A stretch of DNA of 25,945 nt, taken from the NCBI RefSeq assembly GCF_010231475.1, contig NZ_NRDO01000048.1:1-25945 (forward strand), in the 5' to 3' direction. Shown piece by piece: positions 71 through 9,839 of this stretch (position 1 is its first letter; every line of letters begins with the position of its first letter). The translations under genes and the position numbers were made by a program. The stretch comes from Citrobacter sp. NCU1. Lineage in GTDB: Bacteria > Pseudomonadota > Gammaproteobacteria > Enterobacterales > Enterobacteriaceae. The notes beneath the pieces are model-generated. The model searched no databases. It worked only from the letters and a program-made list of their open reading frames with translations, and was not told the origin of the DNA.

Positions 71-1228
71 GTGCAACGGTTGAATGTTCCGGTCTTAATT
101 CTGGCGCTACAACCTGAAAAAAGCGTTCCTTGCCACACAATAAATCAACACCCTGATCGTGCCGTACGTACAGGGCAGTGGCTGGCACACTGTCAGGCCT
201 GTAGCGCACCGGAGCTGGTTAATGTGTTCCAACGCGCAGCGATTCCTCACATGCTGGTACCAGGATACCTGGACGATGACGAGGCCTGGCAGGAGGTAAA
301 TGCATGGTTGGCGGCGATTCAGGTTATTCAGTCTCTGCAAACCACGAATATTGGCGTGCTCGGTCATTATTATAATGGCATGTATGATGTTTATTCTAAT
401 ATGACGAACCTGAGCGCAAAATTTGGTGTGCGTTTTACATTGCTGGAAGTTTGCGAGCTGGTGACCTCATTATCATCAATCAGCGAGGCCGAGAGAGAAC
501 AAAAACGCCAGCACGTTTTTCAGTCGCTGCAGGTGGATCCTTCCTGTGAAGAAGCAGAATTACAACGTGCGATAAATACCGCTATCGCACTGGATAATAT
601 GACCCAACGTTATCGACTGGGTGCAATGGCATATTATTACGAGGGGGCGCCCGGTTCGCCGCAAGAAAACATAATCACCTCCGTGATTCTGGGAAATACA
701 TTGCTCACTGAAAACGGCATCCCGGTTGCAGGTGAGTGTGAAATCAAAAATGTCATCGCCATGAAAATCCTCAGCTTATTGGGTGCTGGCGGTTCTTTTT
801 CTGAGCCTTATGGCATTGATTTTGAAAATCAAACGGTACAGTGGGGCCATGATGGACCCGCGCATCCGTTAATGTCTGCGCAAAAAGTCCGGCTGGTGCC
901 ACTGCCGATTTATCACGGTAAACCCGGCAAAGGGGTCTCAATACAGATGACCGTCGCGCCAGGCCCGGTGACCTTTTTATCCGTTGTAGAACATCAGGAT
1001 GGTCGCGTCACCCTGCAATTCGCAGAAGGTGAAGCCGTTGAAGGTGAAACGCTTGATATCGGCAATACCAATAGCCATTACCGATTCCCACTCAGTGCAA
1101 AAGAATTTACCCGCCGCTGGTGCGAGGGGGGACCGGCACATCACTGCGCCATTGGTATCGGACATGTCGGTCACAAGCTGGAACTCATCGCAAATCAGCT
1201 TGGCATTCAGAGCCTACGGATTTGTTAA
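71..1228 (+). CDS. L-arabinose isomerase (AraA) family protein, C-terminal ~385 aa. The N-terminal portion upstream is interrupted by an in-frame TAA at 44-46, so this is a possible pseudogene or truncated gene; the window starts inside the gene.
   Basis: The translation aligns by eye to the E. coli AraA central and C-terminal regions (e.g. the [10 protein letters not shown]...FGVRF and GAPGS...[13 protein letters not shown]...HDGPAH blocks). The same frame stays AraA-like upstream of the stop (..TLNQ*..). There is a GTG at 71. The gene is convergent with pgi. Confidence 0.55.
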
Positions 1229-1309: not shown

Positions 1310-3013
<1,704 letters not shown>

Positions 3014-3153
3014 TCACAGAAAAGTGTGATTGTTTTAGTGCCGTAACCCTGGCATGTGTCAAACGCGGATGAAAAGCAGCAAAAAGTATAGCTGTTATAA
3101 GCACCATTACTCAGAGCCTGGACAGCATGAAAAATCCGCATAATCCCGTCGTT

Positions 3154-3189
3154 GACAGTGCCCTCCACACATTTTATTTATAAATACGG
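3154..3189 (+). promoter_or_regulatory. Putative sigma70 promoter for lysC. TTGACA at 3154-3159, a ~17-bp spacer, then an AT-rich -10 (TATTTA/TATAAA).
   Basis: Read from the sequence; ~80 nt upstream of the lysC ATG. Confidence 0.35.
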
Positions 3190-3264
3190 TATTTGCGCCT
3201 GCACCGGTTTTTGTTTCGCCCTTGTGCCATGGTCGCTCTTTTCATTCCCTGACACGAGGTTGTA

Positions 3265-4614
3265 ATGACAAATATTGTTGTCTCCAAATTTGGTGGTACA
3301 AGCGTAGCCGATTTTGATGCCATGAACCGTAGCGCCGACGTGGTGCTTTCCGATACCAGCGTCCGTTTAGTGGTCCTTTCCGCCTCTGCCGGGATCACCA
3401 ACCTGCTGGTTGCACTGGCCGAAGGTCTGGAGCCGACAGAACGTTTCGAGAAACTCGACGCTATCCGTAAAATTCAGTTCGATATCCTGGAACGTTTACG
3501 TTATCCCAACGTGATCCGCGAAGAGATCGAACGCCTGCTGGAAAACATCACCACGCTGGCAGAAGCCGCCTCGCTGGCGACCTCAACAGCACTGACCGAC
3601 GAACTGGTCAGCCACGGTGAACTGATGTCCACCCTGCTGTTTGTGGAGATTCTGCGGGAGCGCAATGTCCAGGCACAGTGGTTTGACGTGCGTAAAGTGA
3701 TGCGCACCAACGACCGTTTTGGTCGCGCAGAACCGGATATCGCGGCGCTCTCCGAACTGTCAGCACAACAACTGGCTCCGCGTCTGAATGAAGGATTAGT
3801 GATTACCCAGGGCTTTATCGGTAGCGAAAGCAAGGGCCGCACCACCACGCTCGGCCGTGGCGGCAGCGATTACACCGCCGCACTGCTTGCAGAAGCGCTG
3901 CACGCGACGCGCGTTGATATCTGGACCGACGTTCCGGGCATTTACACCACCGATCCACGCGTCGTCCCTTCCGCACAACGCATTGATGAAATTGCCTTTG
4001 AAGAGGCGGCGGAAATGGCCACCTTCGGCGCGAAAGTGTTGCACCCGGCAACGCTGCTGCCCGCCGTGCGCAGTGATATTCCTGTCTTTGTCGGCTCGAG
4101 CAAAGATCCAAAAGCAGGCGGTACGCTGGTGTGCAACCAGACGCAAAATCCGCCATTGTTCCGCGCGCTGGCGCTGCGTCGTAAACAAACCCTGTTAACG
4201 CTGCATAGCCTGAATATGCTGCACTCCCGCGGCTTCCTCGCAGAAGTCTTCGGCATTCTGGCGCGCCACAATATCTCCGTCGATTTGATAACCACCTCTG
4301 AAGTGAGCGTAGCATTGACGCTGGACACCACCGGTTCCACCTCGACAGGCGATACGCTGCTGACCCAGTCACTGCTGATGGAGCTGTCCGCACTGTGTCG
4401 GGTAGAAGTCGAGGAAGGTCTTGCTCTGGTTGCGCTGATTGGCAACGATCTGTCAAAAGCCTGCGGTGTGGGTAAAGAGGTCTTCGGCGTACTGGAGCCG
4501 TTCAACATCCGTATGATTTGCTATGGCGCCTCCAGCCATAACCTCTGTTTCCTGGTGCCCGGTACCGAAGCAGAGCAAGTCGTGCAGAAGCTGCATTATA
4601 ATTTGTTTGAATGA
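3265..4614 (+). CDS. lysC: Lysine-sensitive aspartokinase III.
   Basis: The 449-aa product is near-identical to E. coli LysC (SKFGGTSVADFDAMNRSAD..., C-terminal ...CFLVPG.EAEQVVQKLH.NLFE). The RBS GAGG lies 7 nt upstream. Confidence 0.97.
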   Translation: MTNIVVSKFGGTSVADFDAMNRSADVVLSDTSVRLVVLSASAGITNLLVALAEGLEPTERFEKLDAIRKIQFDILERLRYPNVIREEIERLLENITTLAEAASLATSTALTDELVSHGELMSTLLFVEILRERNVQAQWFDVRKVMRTNDRFGRAEPDIAALSELSAQQLAPRLNEGLVITQGFIGSESKGRTTTLGRGGSDYTAALLAEALHATRVDIWTDVPGIYTTDPRVVPSAQRIDEIAFEEAAEMATFGAKVLHPATLLPAVRSDIPVFVGSSKDPKAGGTLVCNQTQNPPLFRALALRRKQTLLTLHSLNMLHSRGFLAEVFGILARHNISVDLITTSEVSVALTLDTTGSTSTGDTLLTQSLLMELSALCRVEVEEGLALVALIGNDLSKACGVGKEVFGVLEPFNIRMICYGASSHNLCFLVPGTEAEQVVQKLHYNLFE

Positions 4615-4656: not shown

Positions 4657-5451
4657 TCAGTTTCTCATCACCGTTTCATAAAGCAGCTGATCCAGTGCCT
4701 TCACATCGCCTTCCCGGCAATCCGGTAGCGTCGGCGGTATCTGGCCTCGCGCCAGTTCGGCGTGAATAAACGCATGCAGCAACGGACGCCGTAAACCATA
4801 TTCCACTTCTCCGGCACGCTGTTTACGCGCCAGCAGTTCCTCTATCTCCTGGCGTAATGGCGCATCCAGCTCACTGCCTGCCAACAGCTCGGCAAAACGC
4901 ATCGGAGGTACTCCTTTTCCCGCTTCAATCCAGCGAGCCGCCAGCAACGGGCGCAGAACGTAGAAGTACTTTTTCAACCGCACCTCTTCCCCCTGCAAAT
5001 AACCGCGAAAGTTTTTTTGCGCCATTGAGTAGTAGTGCCAGCGCGCGCGAATCGGTGAAAACCACTGTGGTATCATCGCCTTAAGCGCAATTACCGTTGC
5101 ATCATCCTGCTGATAGACCACGGGAGAGCCCAGCCACTCGATCAGCGTCGGGTTTGCCCCTTTCAGCAACCCCAGCGCTTTGCGCCACTCCCAGCCGCAC
5201 ACGTCCAGCTCATCGTCTATCGGCAGTTCGATCACGTCCCGCGCTGCTTCAACCCGCATATACCATTCCAGCGGATGGACATACAAAAAACGCACATCGT
5301 AATCGCTATCCGGCGAGGCAAAACCCCAGCCGCGACTTCCCGATTCACAGGCATACAGCACTCGAACGCCGTAGCGCGCCTCCACTTCTTTTAACTGCCG
5401 CGCGACCCGTTCGCGCATCGTGACACTCACTGAATTTTTCGTCATCTTCAT
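4657..5451 (-). CDS. Pol-beta-superfamily (minimal-type) nucleotidyltransferase, 264 aa. Last gene of the RtcR-controlled operon; it sits where rtcA lies in E. coli.
   Basis: It carries the hG[GS]-x10-DhD motif (CESGSRGWGFASPDSDYDV) in the N-terminal half. The C-terminal half is helical and contains RRPLLH (an R-x4-H, HEPN-like signature). Its ATG directly abuts the rtcB stop (TAAATG), and an AAAGGA RBS lies inside the rtcB 3' end. Confidence 0.8.
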   Translation of the reverse strand: MKMTKNSVSVTMRERVARQLKEVEARYGVRVLYACESGSRGWGFASPDSDYDVRFLYVHPLEWYMRVEAARDVIELPIDDELDVCGWEWRKALGLLKGANPTLIEWLGSPVVYQQDDATVIALKAMIPQWFSPIRARWHYYSMAQKNFRGYLQGEEVRLKKYFYVLRPLLAARWIEAGKGVPPMRFAELLAGSELDAPLRQEIEELLARKQRAGEVEYGLRRPLLHAFIHAELARGQIPPTLPDCREGDVKALDQLLYETVMRN

Positions 5452-6678
5452 TTATCCTTTGACGCACACGACCTGCCGCAGCGTATGAACGACCTCCACC
5501 AGCGAAGACTGCGCCGACATCACGGCGTCTATATCCTTGTAGGCCATCGGAATCTCATCGATCACCTCGCTGTCTTTACGACATTCAACATGAGCCGTCG
5601 CGCGAATCTGATCCGCCACGGTATAACGTTTTTTGGCCGCCGTTCGGCTCATCGTCCTTCCCGCCCCATGGCTACAGGAACAGAAGCTCTCTTCATTCCC
5701 CAGTCCACGCACGATGAAGCTTTTCGCCCCCATAGACCCCGGGATAATCCCCATTTGGCCTTTCTGCGCAGAGACGGCGCCTTTACGCGTCACCAGTACC
5801 TCTTCACCGAAGTGATGCTCTTTCTGCACATAGTTATGGTGGCAATTCACCGCTTCCTGCTGGGTGATAAAGGGTTTACTCACGATGCGCGACAGTACGG
5901 TCAGCACACGAGACATCATCACCTCCCGGTTCTGCCGGGCAAAATCCTGCGCCCATTCCACAGCTTCGATGTAGTCGTTGTAGTGTCGGCTCCCTTCCTG
6001 AAAATAGGCCAGGTTTCGGTCCGGGAGATTCGCGATATGCTGCTGCATATCCTGCTGCGCCAGCGTGATAAAGATATTACCGATGGCATTCCCCACGCCA
6101 CGCGATCCGCTGTGCAGCATTATCCAGACACGCTGTTGTTCATCCAGACACACCTCAATAAAGTGGTTACCGGTTCCCAGTGTTCCGAGATGTTGATGGT
6201 TATTGGTTTTCAGCAACGACGGATACTTGTCGGTCAGACGCGTAAAGCGCGGCACCAGATCCCCCCAGTGAGCACTCACCTCTTCTGGCGGCGTTTCCCA
6301 CGCGCCTTTATCCCGACGGGAGCGCGTATTAGTGCGCCCATGTGGGACGGCCTGCTCAATCGCGTTACGCAGCCCGCTAAGGTTATCCGGCAAATCGTCC
6401 GCCAGCAGAGAGGTGCGCACCGCAATCATCCCGCAACCGATATCCACACCCACAGCCGCCGGAATAATCGCCCCTTTGGTCGGGATCACACTACCGATGG
6501 TCGACCCCTTTCCCAGATGCACGTCCGGCATCACCGCCAGGTGTTTAAAAATGAAGGGCATCTTCGCCGTATTCAGCAGTTGCTGGCGCGCCTCGGGTTC
6601 TACCGGTACGCCGTGCGTCCACATTTTCACGGGCGCCGCATTCTGCGTCGCCAACAACTCATAGTCGTCATGCGCCAT
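5452..6678 (-). CDS. rtcB: RNA-splicing ligase RtcB (3'-phosphate/2',3'-cyclic phosphate to 5'-OH RNA ligase).
   Basis: The product is 408 aa, the same length as E. coli RtcB, and shares conserved blocks with it (MPDVHLGKGSTIGSVIPT, GTLGTGNHFIE, HNY, SCSHGAGR, MAYKDIDAVM, LRQVVCVKG). Confidence 0.95.
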   Translation of the reverse strand: MAHDDYELLATQNAAPVKMWTHGVPVEPEARQQLLNTAKMPFIFKHLAVMPDVHLGKGSTIGSVIPTKGAIIPAAVGVDIGCGMIAVRTSLLADDLPDNLSGLRNAIEQAVPHGRTNTRSRRDKGAWETPPEEVSAHWGDLVPRFTRLTDKYPSLLKTNNHQHLGTLGTGNHFIEVCLDEQQRVWIMLHSGSRGVGNAIGNIFITLAQQDMQQHIANLPDRNLAYFQEGSRHYNDYIEAVEWAQDFARQNREVMMSRVLTVLSRIVSKPFITQQEAVNCHHNYVQKEHHFGEEVLVTRKGAVSAQKGQMGIIPGSMGAKSFIVRGLGNEESFCSCSHGAGRTMSRTAAKKRYTVADQIRATAHVECRKDSEVIDEIPMAYKDIDAVMSAQSSLVEVVHTLRQVVCVKG

Positions 6679-6682
6679 ATTC

Positions 6683-7810
6683 TTATCCTTTAATATTCAC
6701 TAAGCCGTGGAGAACCTGGTCCAGTCCACCGAAAACCGAGATTTTATCGATACGTTCCGCCACTCTTTCAAGGGTTTCCATTTCCTTAAGCCGCAACGCG
6801 ATCGGGTTGTTTTCCATCACTTTGGCTGTGTTCAACAGTGAGCGTGTTGCCGCCGTCTCTTCTCGTCGGCGGACAACGTTCGCCTGAGCCGATTTCTCTG
6901 CTTCCACAACCTTCGCCAGGATGGTTTTCATCTCACCCGGCAGCACAATGTCCTTCACACCCAACGAGGCAATTTCAATACCAAAGGGCATCATGCGTTT
7001 TTTCACCTGCGCACTTACTACTTGATCAATCAACTGCTTATCCTCCAGCAATTCATCGAGAGTGCGTGTTCCCACGGCTTCACGTAGAGCGAATTGCAGC
7101 TCGCGGTAAAGGTGATCCAGCGGTTTCGCCAGTTGCCCAAAAGCCTGTAAAACATCCTGATAACGCCAGTTAGCCGCCAGATTCAAACGCAGATTCACTT
7201 TGTCTTTTGTCAGGATCTCCTGCCCCCCCACTTCCAACACCTGCAGTCGGGTATCGACCGCTTCGGCCTCCACAAGATGATTCACCTTCCAGTAAGCACT
7301 CAATCCTGGCGGCAGTAACGTCTGAGTTTCGCCATCGACTTTTAAAACGCCTACATGCCAGGCAGCAATAGACACGGTGAGAATAATATCGCGACCTTTT
7401 ACTACCCCACTGCGGCGGGGTTGCAACACGGCATTCATTACGTCTGCTGGAACCTGCACCTGCCGTGTATCCATACGCATCAGGTGCATGTTCTCAACCG
7501 ATTTCCAGTACAAACGACGTGTTGAGGGCGCAAGAATTTCTTGCAATACACCATTGATATACAGCGCACCCGCTTCAAAATCGGTTAAATCAGCGATGAT
7601 GCAATAGCGCTCAACCCATTCAGGCTGAAAACGGCGTAAATAGTCAGCCAACGCTTCCGGCACTTCACTGCCGTCCAGGTTAACGACCAGCACCTCAGGT
7701 GTATTGAACCACCACAGACGGCACTCACCCGCCTCCAGAACCTGATAGTAGTCACCATTCTTCGCTAACAGACCTAATTGCCCTTTTCGTATTGTAATTT
7801 TCTTCGTCAT
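6683..7810 (-). CDS. SPFH/band-7 (stomatin/prohibitin-like) domain protein with a ~145-aa N-terminal extra domain and no obvious N-terminal TM helix. First gene of the operon.
   Basis: The C-terminal half shows the classic SPFH core (LLPPGL..WKV..VDTRLQVLEV.GQEILTKDKV.L.LN...WRY, then the coiled-coil AEKSAQANVVRRREETAATR...). The ORF track extends to 7966. An internal ATG at 7808-7810 has a strong SD (AAGGAAAAGAGAA-ATG), whereas the ATG at 7966 has none. The stop lies 4 nt before the rtcB ATG. Confidence 0.8.
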   Translation of the reverse strand: MTKKITIRKGQLGLLAKNGDYYQVLEAGECRLWWFNTPEVLVVNLDGSEVPEALADYLRRFQPEWVERYCIIADLTDFEAGALYINGVLQEILAPSTRRLYWKSVENMHLMRMDTRQVQVPADVMNAVLQPRRSGVVKGRDIILTVSIAAWHVGVLKVDGETQTLLPPGLSAYWKVNHLVEAEAVDTRLQVLEVGGQEILTKDKVNLRLNLAANWRYQDVLQAFGQLAKPLDHLYRELQFALREAVGTRTLDELLEDKQLIDQVVSAQVKKRMMPFGIEIASLGVKDIVLPGEMKTILAKVVEAEKSAQANVVRRREETAATRSLLNTAKVMENNPIALRLKEMETLERVAERIDKISVFGGLDQVLHGLVNIKG

Positions 7811-8105
7811 TTCTCTTTTCCTTGTCAATTCAGGTGCGGGTGCAGAGGTGACGTCACAGGGAATTCCCTTTTGCCTACGACGCGGCATCATTACCGGCAA
7901 CCTGTTTTGGGGTGTGCTGACTGCGCAATACCCGTTTTTATTTCTATGATTAACAACCATTTTCATTGGAAAAATGAATCGGGAATCGAACCCATTGTTC
8001 AGGTGTCATTCGGTTGACGGAACACCTCAGGAAAACAACCGCTGCCGTTCCTGACGTGCCGGCGGGGTTTAACCCCCTGCGCTTTCAACGTGTTGACAAG
8101 AGAGT

Positions 8106-8124
8106 TATTGCCAGAAGCGTGCCA
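8106..8124 (-). promoter_or_regulatory. Predicted sigma54 (RpoN) promoter driving the SPFH-rtcB-NTase operon. Minus-strand reading: ccTGGCACGcttcTGGCAata.
   Basis: Perfect -24 element TGGCACG, a 4-nt spacer, and the -12 GC retained (TGGCA vs the TTGCA consensus). It is correctly oriented toward the operon and upstream of the AT-rich UAS-like region next to rtcR. RtcR is a known sigma54 enhancer-binding protein. Confidence 0.55.
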
Positions 8125-8129
8125 GGATG

Positions 8130-8258
8130 AAAAAAAGATGAAATTATTTTTAATTAATTGATTAATAAGGTATTAATTTTTACATTAATAATGATAATTG
8201 CAGATGCCGATTATATTTTTTATCTTTAAATATCGACATTTATCTTTTTGGATAAGCA
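8130..8258. promoter_or_regulatory. AT-rich divergent control region holding the rtcR promoter and likely the RtcR UAS/IHF sites. It contains ATTAAT motifs phased at ~10-11 bp.
   Basis: ATTAAT occurs at ~8153, 8162, 8173 and 8186. The region is extremely AT-rich compared with its flanks. Confidence 0.35.
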
Positions 8259-9839
8259 ATGAAAAAAAGGCGAGTAGTCATTGGCGTTCTGGGTACGGTA
8301 CTGGATAAACGCGGTAAGCGGGCAAATCGTTTAAAAAAATGGCGACCCACGGTCGGTCTGTGCCAACAGCCGGATTTTCCTGTTGACCGACTGGAACTTA
8401 TCCACCAGCCACGCGACGCCGGGATGTGCCAGCAACTGGCGGAAGATATCCATTTACTCTCGCCTCATACAGAGGTTCGTCCACACGCTATCGCCATTGC
8501 GAACCCGTGGGATTTCGAAGAGGTCTATGCCGCGTTCCTCGATTTTTCCACCCACTACACGTTCGATACTGCAAACGAAGAGTATTTGGTGCACATCACC
8601 ACCGGCACCCATGTAGCGCAAATTTGCTGGTTCCTGCTGACGGAAGCGCGTTATCTGCCCGCCAGTTTGCTACAAACTGGGCCTGCGGCGAAGGGCGTTC
8701 CGGAGGAGATGATTGCCCCCGGCACCTGTTCGGTCATCGATCTCGATTTAAGCCGCTATACCACGCTCACCAGTCGCTTCCAGCGCGAGCAACAGCAGTC
8801 CGTCTCATTTCTCAAAGCCGGTATCGATACGCGCAATGCCACGTTCAATAAACTGATTGACCGCATCGAGCGCGTGGCCCTGCGTTCTGGCGACCCTATT
8901 CTGCTTACCGGCCCCACGGGTGCAGGAAAATCCTTTCTCGCGAAGCGGATTTTTCAGCTTCGTCAGTCGCGGCACCGGGTTGACGGTAAACTGGTGGCGG
9001 TCAACTGCGCCACCCTGCGCGGCGATAACGCAATGTCTACGCTGTTTGGTCATGTGAAAGGGGCGTTCACGGGCGCACTGACGCCACGAACAGGTCTGTT
9101 ACGCGAAGCCAACGGTGGTGTGCTGTTTTTGGATGAAATTGCCGAACTGGGGCTGGATGAGCAAGCTATGCTGCTAAAAGCGATTGAGGAAAAAACCTTT
9201 TTCCCGTTTGGCTCCGATAAAGAGGTGCAGAGTGATTTCCAATTGATTGCGGGCACCCATCGCGATATGCCGCAATGGGTCGCCGAAGGGCGGTTTCGTG
9301 AAGATCTCTATGCACGTATTAATATGTGGAGTTTTGCCCTGCCCGGCCTCGCACAACGACGTGAAGACATCGCCCCCAACATCGAGTATGAGCTCCAACG
9401 TTTCTCCAGCAGTAGACAGCCCCAGATCCGCTTTGACAAAGAAGCGCGCGAGCGCTATCTGGCATTTGCCTGTTCACCTCAGGCGCAATGGCGCGGCAAT
9501 TTTCGCGAACTGAGTTCGTCCGTCGCGCGAATGGCAACGCTGGCCGAGCAAGGGCGTATCACCCTGGATCTCGCTGAAGAAGAGATTGCGCTGTTGCAGG
9601 AAACCTGGCGGGACACGGCGTCGCAGCCGGAACTGGAGATGGACATCGATCTCTTTGATCGCCACCAGTTGGAAACCGTGCTTGAAGTCTGCCGCCGCAG
9701 CGCGTCGTTGTCTGAAGCCGGGCGCGAACTCTTCGCCATTTCGCGGCAGAAGAAAACGAATCCTAACGATGCTGACCGCCTGCGTAAGTATCTGGCGCGT
9801 TTTGGCCTGAGCTGGGAAAGCCCCAAAGTCAGAACATGA
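8259..9839 (+). CDS. rtcR: RtcR-type sigma54-dependent transcriptional activator (N-terminal CARF domain, AAA+ sigma54-interaction domain, C-terminal HTH).
   Basis: The 526-aa product shares N-terminal (GTVLD..G.....W.KWRPT..LCQQ, NPWDFEEVYA, HITTGTHVAQICWFLL.EARYLPA) and central AAA+ (GPTGAGKSF, GAFTGA, ESELFGH-like region) blocks with E. coli RtcR. Confidence 0.92.
   Translation: MKKRRVVIGVLGTVLDKRGKRANRLKKWRPTVGLCQQPDFPVDRLELIHQPRDAGMCQQLAEDIHLLSPHTEVRPHAIAIANPWDFEEVYAAFLDFSTHYTFDTANEEYLVHITTGTHVAQICWFLLTEARYLPASLLQTGPAAKGVPEEMIAPGTCSVIDLDLSRYTTLTSRFQREQQQSVSFLKAGIDTRNATFNKLIDRIERVALRSGDPILLTGPTGAGKSFLAKRIFQLRQSRHRVDGKLVAVNCATLRGDNAMSTLFGHVKGAFTGALTPRTGLLREANGGVLFLDEIAELGLDEQAMLLKAIEEKTFFPFGSDKEVQSDFQLIAGTHRDMPQWVAEGRFREDLYARINMWSFALPGLAQRREDIAPNIEYELQRFSSSRQPQIRFDKEARERYLAFACSPQAQWRGNFRELSSSVARMATLAEQGRITLDLAEEEIALLQETWRDTASQPELEMDIDLFDRHQLETVLEVCRRSASLSEAGRELFAISRQKKTNPNDADRLRKYLARFGLSWESPKVRT

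Follow-up and report, generated by a model that had tools for sequence, protein, structure and literature searches.

A predicted three-module leader RNA with a tRNA-type T-arm precedes the slipin gene of a Citrobacter rtc RNA-repair operon

Rtc RNA-repair operons influence whether cells survive stress from antibiotics and toxins, and the Salmonella operon rsr-yrlBA-rtcBA carries the Y RNAs YrlA and YrlB. Does a noncoding RNA take the equivalent place in rtc operons that encode a slipin? The question is raised by a 25,945-nt stretch of a contig of Citrobacter sp. NCU1 (hereafter the window), in which a sigma-54 (RpoN) promoter opposite the activator gene rtcR is followed by an unusually long leader and then by a slipin-rtcB-rlaP operon. 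An initial annotation, made from the letters of the window, had proposed a structured noncoding RNA in this leader, at the position of the Y RNAs. Here, we present comparative evidence that the leader is a conserved structured RNA of ~270 nt, built of three modules: a 5' three-way junction that almost every slipin-type rtc leader examined possesses, a tRNA-derived module and a 3' hairpin domain specific to Enterobacterales (coordinates in Table 1). The reading we favour, with a probability of roughly 0.55, is that this tRNA-derived RNA would be a cognate partner of slipin and the RlaP/RtcB repair module.

The leader was compared across about 100 related loci, labelled L below. Scanning genomes yielded 20 loci whose slipin identities run between 92% and 40% (Pseudocitrobacter, Citrobacter, Klebsiella, Enterobacter, Superficieibacter, Phytobacter, Kosakonia, Xenorhabdus, Providencia and Thorsellia, plus a gammaproteobacterial metagenome-assembled genome), a metagenome scan added 80 further loci with identities of 86–52%, and leader alignments were made from 29 distinct, non-redundant leaders. 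The order rtcR, promoter, leader RNA, slipin, (rtcB), rlaP is kept over this set. The promoter has GG at -24 and GC at -12 with correct spacing, and its single deviation from TGGCAC-N5-TTGCW is a G for T at -14. Only one match to TGGCAC-N5-TKGCW occurs in the 25.9-kb window, against a chance expectation of 0.08, which bears out the promoter that the initial annotation had placed at 8106–8124, before a leader of ~290 nt, and leaves no second match nearer to 7810. A sigma-54 element stands at the equivalent place in related loci having enough upstream sequence, and rtcR is likewise divergent from the operon in relatives. The -12 element alone predicts a transcription start site near 8098, and hence ~288 nt up to the slipin start codon at 7810. 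This start agrees with the 375-aa length that almost all of the 120 closest homologues in the database have in common.

The leader is non-coding. In most of the 29 distinct relatives the frame upstream of the annotated slipin start meets a stop 1–7 codons before it, and the in-frame ATG at 7966, which the initial annotation had also discounted, is not a conserved start among them. Unannotated coding, as an N-terminal extension of slipin from ATG 7966 or a small open reading frame (ORF), could appeal to an in-frame ORF of 427 aa in the window, but the stop-closed frames of the relatives and their 375-aa proteins contradict it. A TTG-initiated ORF of 79 aa runs antisense to the leader (7778–8017, plus strand) and overlaps the conserved RNA structure; it is probably spurious. 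An intrinsic terminator and a sigma-70-like promoter were sought inside the leader and neither was found, and the leader is predicted to be the 5' part of the slipin-rtcB-rlaP transcript from the RtcR/sigma-54 promoter. The E. coli rtcBA operon shares the RtcR/sigma-54 promoter type and a similar Shine-Dalgarno region (GAAAAGAGAAA), whereas its leader is ~28 nt long, it has neither slipin nor RlaP, and it has no match to the model of the 5' domain described below. The unique promoter, the homologue-length start, the closed frame and the short E. coli leader together argue that the ~288-nt leader is real and specific to the slipin-type operon.

Compensatory changes support a structure at the two ends of the leader (numbered so that nt 1 is window position 8098 and a window coordinate is 8099 minus nt). 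The 5' domain begins ~10 nt from the predicted transcript start. Its helices P0, P1 and P2 are returned by the minimum free energy (MFE) fold of the isolated 5' segment (z = -1.98), and 24 of their 27 pairs show double, both-side changes. The covariation score of 0.42 compares with 0.18 for shuffled alignments, was reached in 0/500 shuffles and falls to 0.05–0.10 in slid controls. R1, a covariance model of this domain from the 29 non-redundant leaders, scores 89.5 bits in the window and 60–96 bits in all Enterobacterales loci, and in the alignment of R1 matches 91.8% of cells pair versus 78.2% after shuffling. The 3' domain (P4 and P5) behaves similarly, with double changes in 26/30 pairs, 86.7% of cells pairing versus 69.9% shuffled, and a covariation score of 0.51 versus 0.22 shuffled and 0.09–0.13 in slid controls. 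In the three helices of P5, 91–93% of cells pair and 18/22 pairs change on both sides, and the MFE fold agrees with them; P4 has double changes in 8/8 pairs, but 72% of its cells pair because of register shifts. The corresponding model, R2, reaches 94.2 bits in the window, 57–117 bits in Enterobacterales and 25–30 bits in Providencia, and found no match in the distant loci outside Enterobacterales.

Folding and covariation across homologous loci, the check that the initial annotation had proposed, thus came out in favour of a structured RNA; already in the first alignment RNAalifold gave 52 pairs with compensatory changes in 29. Taken whole, the leader folds with an unremarkable MFE (z = -0.99), and stability alone would have missed the RNA. 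The one hairpin that had been singled out beforehand, AGGUGU/ACACCU (8027–8022 with 8006–8001), did not survive the comparison: it pairs in 53% of cells, lacks a compensatory pattern and overlaps P2. A long-range pairing of GGUUG (nt 141–145), at first with 5' GUCAAC and later with CAACC (nt 83–87), was ruled out because UCAAC covaries with GUUGA (nt 10–14), which defines P0.

Between the two domains lies the tRNA-derived module. Its T-arm has the canonical tRNA-type UUCRANY loop closed by G53-C61; the 11-mer GGTTCGAWTCC occurs once in the window versus 0.04 expected and is invariant across Enterobacterales leaders. Its sole Rfam similarity is 13 nt of a tmRNA T-arm, with which the T-loop is identical in sequence, so that a T-loop elbow is likely. 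Unlike the tRNA-like domain of tmRNA and the tRNA-like structures of viruses, the window RNA lacks both a 3' CCA and an acceptor end that could be aminoacylated, matches the tmRNA model over these 13 nt only and stands in another context. Directly 3' of the T-arm, hairpin H occupies the place of a closed acceptor-like stem-loop. A hairpin of 4–8 bp is present at this position in nearly all of the 29 leaders while its sequence differs (UCACC/GGUGA, UUCAUC/GAUGAA, UCACU/AGUGA, UUUUAC/GUAAAA); the minimum-energy fold of the segment omits it in a few of them, and the alignment of the covariance model R3 leaves two pairing registers of H unseparated, so that its pair counts understate H. Pairing of the UUCAUU strand of H with AAUGA/GAUGA upstream was rejected, given that L030, L032, L034, L045 and Phytobacter keep H and not that pairing. 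The third element, a D-arm-like mini-hairpin with a UGGUU loop, is weakly indicated by a 3-bp stem with one A-U to U-A swap (8 versus 8 sequences); Phytobacter has a 6-bp version, GAACAC/GUGUUC. No conserved pairing was found between the flanks of the module (nt 87–103 versus nt 148–165), and an AUGA/UCAU flank pairing is, by inspection, confined to Citrobacter and Klebsiella types. The A/U-rich linker that follows might be a processing site.

Known families do not account for this RNA. At gathering threshold, Rfam release 15 gave 0 hits in the window, so the scan with Y_RNA and other covariance models that the initial annotation had suggested came back empty. A permissive scan of 7700–8300 returned MtlS, NsiR8, U2, SAM-III and the 13-nt tmRNA T-arm, all at chance level. 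ARAGORN found 0 tRNA genes in the window and Rfam no tRNA hit there even at E up to 10, and neither program found a tRNA in any Enterobacterales locus; over the 20 genome-derived loci Rfam hits were confined to tRNA and the Lysine riboswitch, none in Enterobacterales leaders. The 5' and 3' domains are described in neither Rfam nor the accessible literature.

Related forms of the middle module occur in more distant loci. R1 also matches about 22 of these at 17–30 bits (E 1e-5 to 0.07), on the slipin strand and upstream of tRNA-like units, with only two matches elsewhere; where the promoter is recognisable, the match starts ~35–50 nt past its first base. The equivalent slot usually holds two T-loops ~75 nt apart and one or two cloverleaf tRNA-like units, one or both of which ARAGORN calls tRNA; the units of L020 also match the Rfam tRNA model. 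Their anticodons are variable and unusual (aaa, att, gat, cat, aat, agt, cgt, agc and others), and some units have 2-nt or 4-nt "anticodons" or anticodon loops of abnormal size, which suggests that they do not decode. Intermediate forms, consisting of an acceptor-stem and T-arm minihelix, occur in L006, L043, L046, L047, L053 and Xenorhabdus. A T-loop is absent from Providencia (L011, L012), X. hominickii (L015, about 2776–2837) and Pseudomonas-like L062 and L064, of which L012, L015, L062 and L064 still match the 5' domain (18–70 bits) and L011 does not. Hairpin H is also lost in L011, L012 and L015; the 3' domain is matched in all three of these, the 5' domain in L012 and L015 only. Such leaders evidently tolerate losing the tRNA-like module. 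Lineages carry two units, one, a minihelix or none, while the 5' domain persists in nearly all forms, including most loci without a T-arm, which points to an evolutionarily labile tRNA-derived module and a 5' junction that is the nearly constant part.

Such progressive loss might be expected of a functionless remnant or insertion scar of a tRNA gene. However, over 50 base pairs have been kept by compensatory change, the T-loop is invariant, and slipin identities down to 52% speak against an alignment artefact of very recent common ancestry. Covariation and stop-closed upstream frames contradict this reading and that of unannotated coding, and we consider the two, taken together, to be very improbable indeed. 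The variable and often non-standard anticodons of the units in distant loci, as expected of non-decoding or arms-race elements, also fit a decoy or sensor RNA, that is, a bait for tRNA-targeting ribotoxins which titrates the nuclease or whose 2',3'-cyclic phosphate products feed back on the CARF domain of RtcR. tRNA fragments that end in a cyclic phosphate activate RtcR, and YrlA has been suggested to act as a competitive inhibitor (PMC7790460). But the window RNA has no anticodon arm, the 5' junction as its most conserved part bears no likeness to tRNA, and YrlA was not cleaved by the Salmonella nuclease (PMC7790460), which makes a decoy rather improbable here.

The motif CCCGCCGGUGC, which comprises the P1 3' strand and the start of P2, recurs just 3' of tRNA-like units in distant loci, with copies in L055, L057, L062 and L071 at about -500 and about -250 from the slipin start. 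The P4/P5 junction of the window (7890–7912, ACCCC...GCCGGUAAUGAUGCCG) is similar to it, and the 3' domain may have arisen from the 5' domain by duplication and divergence. In viral contigs the 5'-domain pattern gave more than 120 GC-rich chance matches and one weak R1 match, in a coding region that has neither slipin nor RtcB close by.

Table 1 Features of the leader, the operon and related loci.
Feature	Position (window unless a locus is given)	Strand	Evidence or remark
Sigma-54 (RpoN) promoter TGGCACGCTTCTGGCA	8109–8124	-	Sole match in window; kept in related loci
5' domain, three-way junction P0/P1/P2	8013–8089	-	MFE fold, covariance model R1, covariation
P0, GUUGA with UCAAC	8089–8085 with 8017–8013; nt 10–14 with nt 82–86	-
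P1, hairpin with bulged A	8080–8062; nt 19–37	-
P2, long hairpin closed by CGG/CCG, then UU bulge, then CAC/GUG	8061–8018; nt 38–81	-
Linker from P0 to T-arm, conserved GAC(A)	7996–8012	-	Alignments; no pairing partner established
tRNA-type T-arm GGGUUCGAUUCCC	7980–7994	-	GGG UUCGAUU CCC at 7993–7981, plus U.G pair
Hairpin H, UUCAUU-UUUCC-AAUGAA	7962–7978; nt 121–137	-	Directly 3' of T-arm
D-arm-like mini-hairpin, conserved AA(C)UGGUUGUU, GG-containing loop	7952–7961	-	Conserved in Enterobacteriaceae
A/U-rich single-stranded linker UUAAUCAUAGAAAUAAAAAC	7934–7951	-	Unpaired in all folds
P4, hairpin with loop GCAGUCA	7909–7933; nt 166–189	-	Part of covariance model R2
P5, long irregular hairpin, conserved GGCAAAA bulge, apical GGG-AAUU-CCC	7831–7904; nt 195–268	-
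Shine-Dalgarno AGGA of slipin	7819–7822	-
Slipin/SPFH (Band-7), 375 aa	6683–7810	-	PF01145 2.9e-25
rtcB, RNA ligase	5452–6678	-	PF01139 1.3e-131
rlaP, Pol-beta family nucleotidyltransferase	4657–5451	-	PF10127 3.3e-93
rtcR, divergent sigma-54 activator, RtcR/CARF domain and AAA+ domain	8259–9839	+	PF06956 2.8e-78; PF00158 2.7e-48
Tandem tRNA-like genes	L020 2543–2695; L055–L100 ~240–450 nt upstream of slipin start
rtcB-less loci	L001–L004, L006, L021, L023–L031, L033–L041, L044, L051; e.g. L003 3001–6311

Since the leader is transcribed with slipin, it might also be a purely cis-acting 5' untranslated region that protects the 5' end of the mRNA from RNase E or tunes slipin translation, with no trans-acting RNA. 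The pyrimidine-rich H loop UUUUUCC (7969–7975) and the P2 strand UUUUCC (8030–8035) are complementary to GGAAAAG (7816–7822) at the Shine-Dalgarno sequence, UCC-containing H loops recur in most relatives, and an anti-Shine-Dalgarno contact of either may form. The translational version of the cis-acting reading has the UUUCC loop of H or the UUUUCC strand of P2 pair with this GGAAAAG region, and the recurrence of pyrimidine-rich UCC loops in H fits it, as do the structure beginning ~10 nt from the predicted 5' end and the leader having neither its own promoter nor its own terminator. Yet P5 ends ~8 nt before the Shine-Dalgarno sequence, which lies outside every conserved helix, and the leader contains no terminator/antiterminator pair; a riboswitch or attenuator expression platform would show a terminator in the leader or the Shine-Dalgarno sequence sequestered in a conserved helix, and neither was found. 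The loop pairing itself is beyond covariation testing because the Shine-Dalgarno sequence is invariant. An invariant canonical T-loop and, in relatives, whole tRNA-like genes are unneeded for mRNA stabilisation, and a conserved 270-nt fold of three domains is excessive for it. We regard a purely cis-acting leader as unlikely.

The closest precedent is a prediction. Burroughs and Aravind 2016 predicted a tRNA associated with band-7 ("b7a-tRNA") in RNA-repair operons (cited in 10.1101/312249), and Wang et al. (10.1101/312249) describe it as one that bears a strong resemblance to a genuine tRNA, is functionally interchangeable with YrlA and has not been validated; in the literature searched, the term occurs only there. 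The window RNA occupies the same slot, flanked by rtcR and its sigma-54 promoter on one side and by the Band-7/SPFH gene of an operon with RNA-ligase repair on the other, and has a canonical T-arm, and the cloverleaf-bearing distant loci share its 5' junction directly upstream. Resemblance to an authentic tRNA is found in L020 and many of L055–L100, but not in the window or any Enterobacterales locus: the window RNA lacks both an anticodon arm and an open 7-bp acceptor stem, its T-arm is followed by a closed hairpin, and the whole is embedded in a ~270-nt fold. The shared upstream 5' domain and the minihelix intermediates provide continuity between the two forms. In P. aeruginosa the counterpart is PA4581.1, annotated "tRNA-Arg4" and located between rtcR and PA4582–4585 (PMC13637947); it lacks CCA and is detectable by qRT-PCR (quantitative reverse transcription PCR; PMC13637947), it is upregulated in a late cystic-fibrosis isolate (PMC8743555), and the slipin of its locus is PaFlo8 (PMC13086221).

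The second comparison is with YrlA, in whose crystal structure a T stem-loop (nt 33–49) is followed by a closed acceptor-like stem-loop (nt 50–64) and a D stem-loop (nt 67–81). The window RNA shares the RtcR/sigma-54 promoter ahead of rtcB and may share the circularly permuted tRNA order of T stem-loop, closed acceptor-like stem-loop and GG-containing D-like loop; support is good for the first two of these elements, and the D-like element is the weakly indicated 3-bp hairpin described above. Unlike YrlA, it has no flank stem closing the tRNA-like module and carries additional 5' and 3' domains. A scan of the operon and flanking ORFs found slipin, RtcB and RlaP as operon genes and no rsr among them, and the Rsr-binding motif GNCGAAN0-1G near the 5' end of Y RNAs (PMC4201824) is not conserved, reading ACCGAAUG in the window and GCCGAUG, GCGGAAAG, GCAGAGAG and GUGUAUAG in relatives. 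The Y-RNA-like analogue of the initial annotation thus holds as an analogy and fails as membership of the Y RNA family. The leader RNA is best viewed as a putative degenerate, non-cloverleaf form of the predicted and little-studied b7a-tRNA and a putative functional analogue of YrlA.

We therefore return to the reading that the leader RNA is a partner of the repair proteins. It draws on the covariation of the 5' and 3' domains, the retention of H through sequence change and the unique, invariant T-loop; on conserved synteny, with tRNA-like genes in the same slot of distant loci behind the same 5' domain; on the predicted interchangeability of b7a-tRNA with YrlA, the CCA-less, detectable PA4581.1 and the putatively YrlA-like element order; and on the distribution of such leaders, which are lacking in the slipin-less E. 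coli rtcBA and persist together with slipin and RlaP where rtcB is absent. The RNA would associate with a cytoplasmic slipin oligomer, RlaP and, where present, RtcB, in the role that YrlA and YrlB have for Rsr in the Salmonella operon. Its tRNA-mimicking module would show a tRNA-like surface, formed by a T-loop/GG-loop elbow and a stacked helix, to tRNA-recognising factors, and the conserved 5' junction would be a family-specific protein-binding platform. It could act as an attached part of the mRNA or once the A/U-rich linker has been cut.

Some observations weigh against this partnership. The level of PA4581.1 did not follow rtc induction in P. aeruginosa (PMC13637947); the missing promoter and terminator of the leader leave room for a purely cis-acting role; the D-like hairpin rests on a 3-bp stem and a single swap; and the tRNA-like module is degenerate in the window and absent in Providencia and some Pseudomonas-like loci. 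Because of this absence, tRNA mimicry cannot be the universal function. A further reading, which we put forward tentatively as possible though on balance doubtful, shifts the weight to the constant element, the 5' junction with its signature GGGG-loop-CCCC-GCCGGYRC ... GYRUKCCG, instead of the tRNA mimic. In nearly all lineages examined, most of those without any T-arm among them, this junction lies ~10 nt from the transcript start. It would represent an undescribed class of RNA that docks the cytoplasmic slipin oligomer and, with interchangeable tRNA-like and 3' modules, forms a vault- or Ro-like ribonucleoprotein organising RNA repair.

In many Klebsiella, Pseudocitrobacter and related loci, the leader, slipin and rlaP occur without rtcB. 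The existence of these operons suggests that the trio of RNA, slipin and RlaP is the functional core. Damaged RNAs receive 1 or 2 nucleotides at their 3'-OH ends from RlaP (PMC12776372). Over residues 155–373 the slipin is stomatin-like, and it has no evident transmembrane segment (maximum Kyte-Doolittle 19-residue average, 1.46); the hydrophobic segment typical of membrane-anchored stomatins is missing. Its N-terminal ~150 residues matched no Pfam or NCBIfam family and, by sequence, no PDB structure. Xenorhabdus slipins (L013–L017, slipin match 3001–4563) and one database homologue, P0015 (522 aa), are ~146 residues longer than the 375-aa form, in what looks like an internal or N-terminal insertion.

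In the rtcB-less loci a convergent aspartokinase gene directly follows rlaP, and at this same chromosomal site the window has rtcB as an insertion that separates slipin from rlaP. A Lysine riboswitch (85–91 bits) precedes the orthologous aspartokinase in L001 (6403–6596), L003 (6492–6725) and L004 (6491–6724); none was found upstream of the aspartokinase of the window (3265–4614, plus strand; searched 2700–3400), even at E up to 1.

A covariation-supported RNA of ~270 nt accompanies these repair genes in Citrobacter, Klebsiella, Enterobacter, Phytobacter, Xenorhabdus and many uncultured bacteria. What had only been predicted as b7a-tRNA is now linked to a larger fold, and R1–R3 provide working models for a family that Rfam lacks. 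The leader RNA offers a concrete and genetically tractable handle on the roles of slipin/Band-7 proteins and RlaP in RNA repair, and a second system, independent of Ro and Y RNA, for asking why RNA-repair modules carry tRNA mimics.

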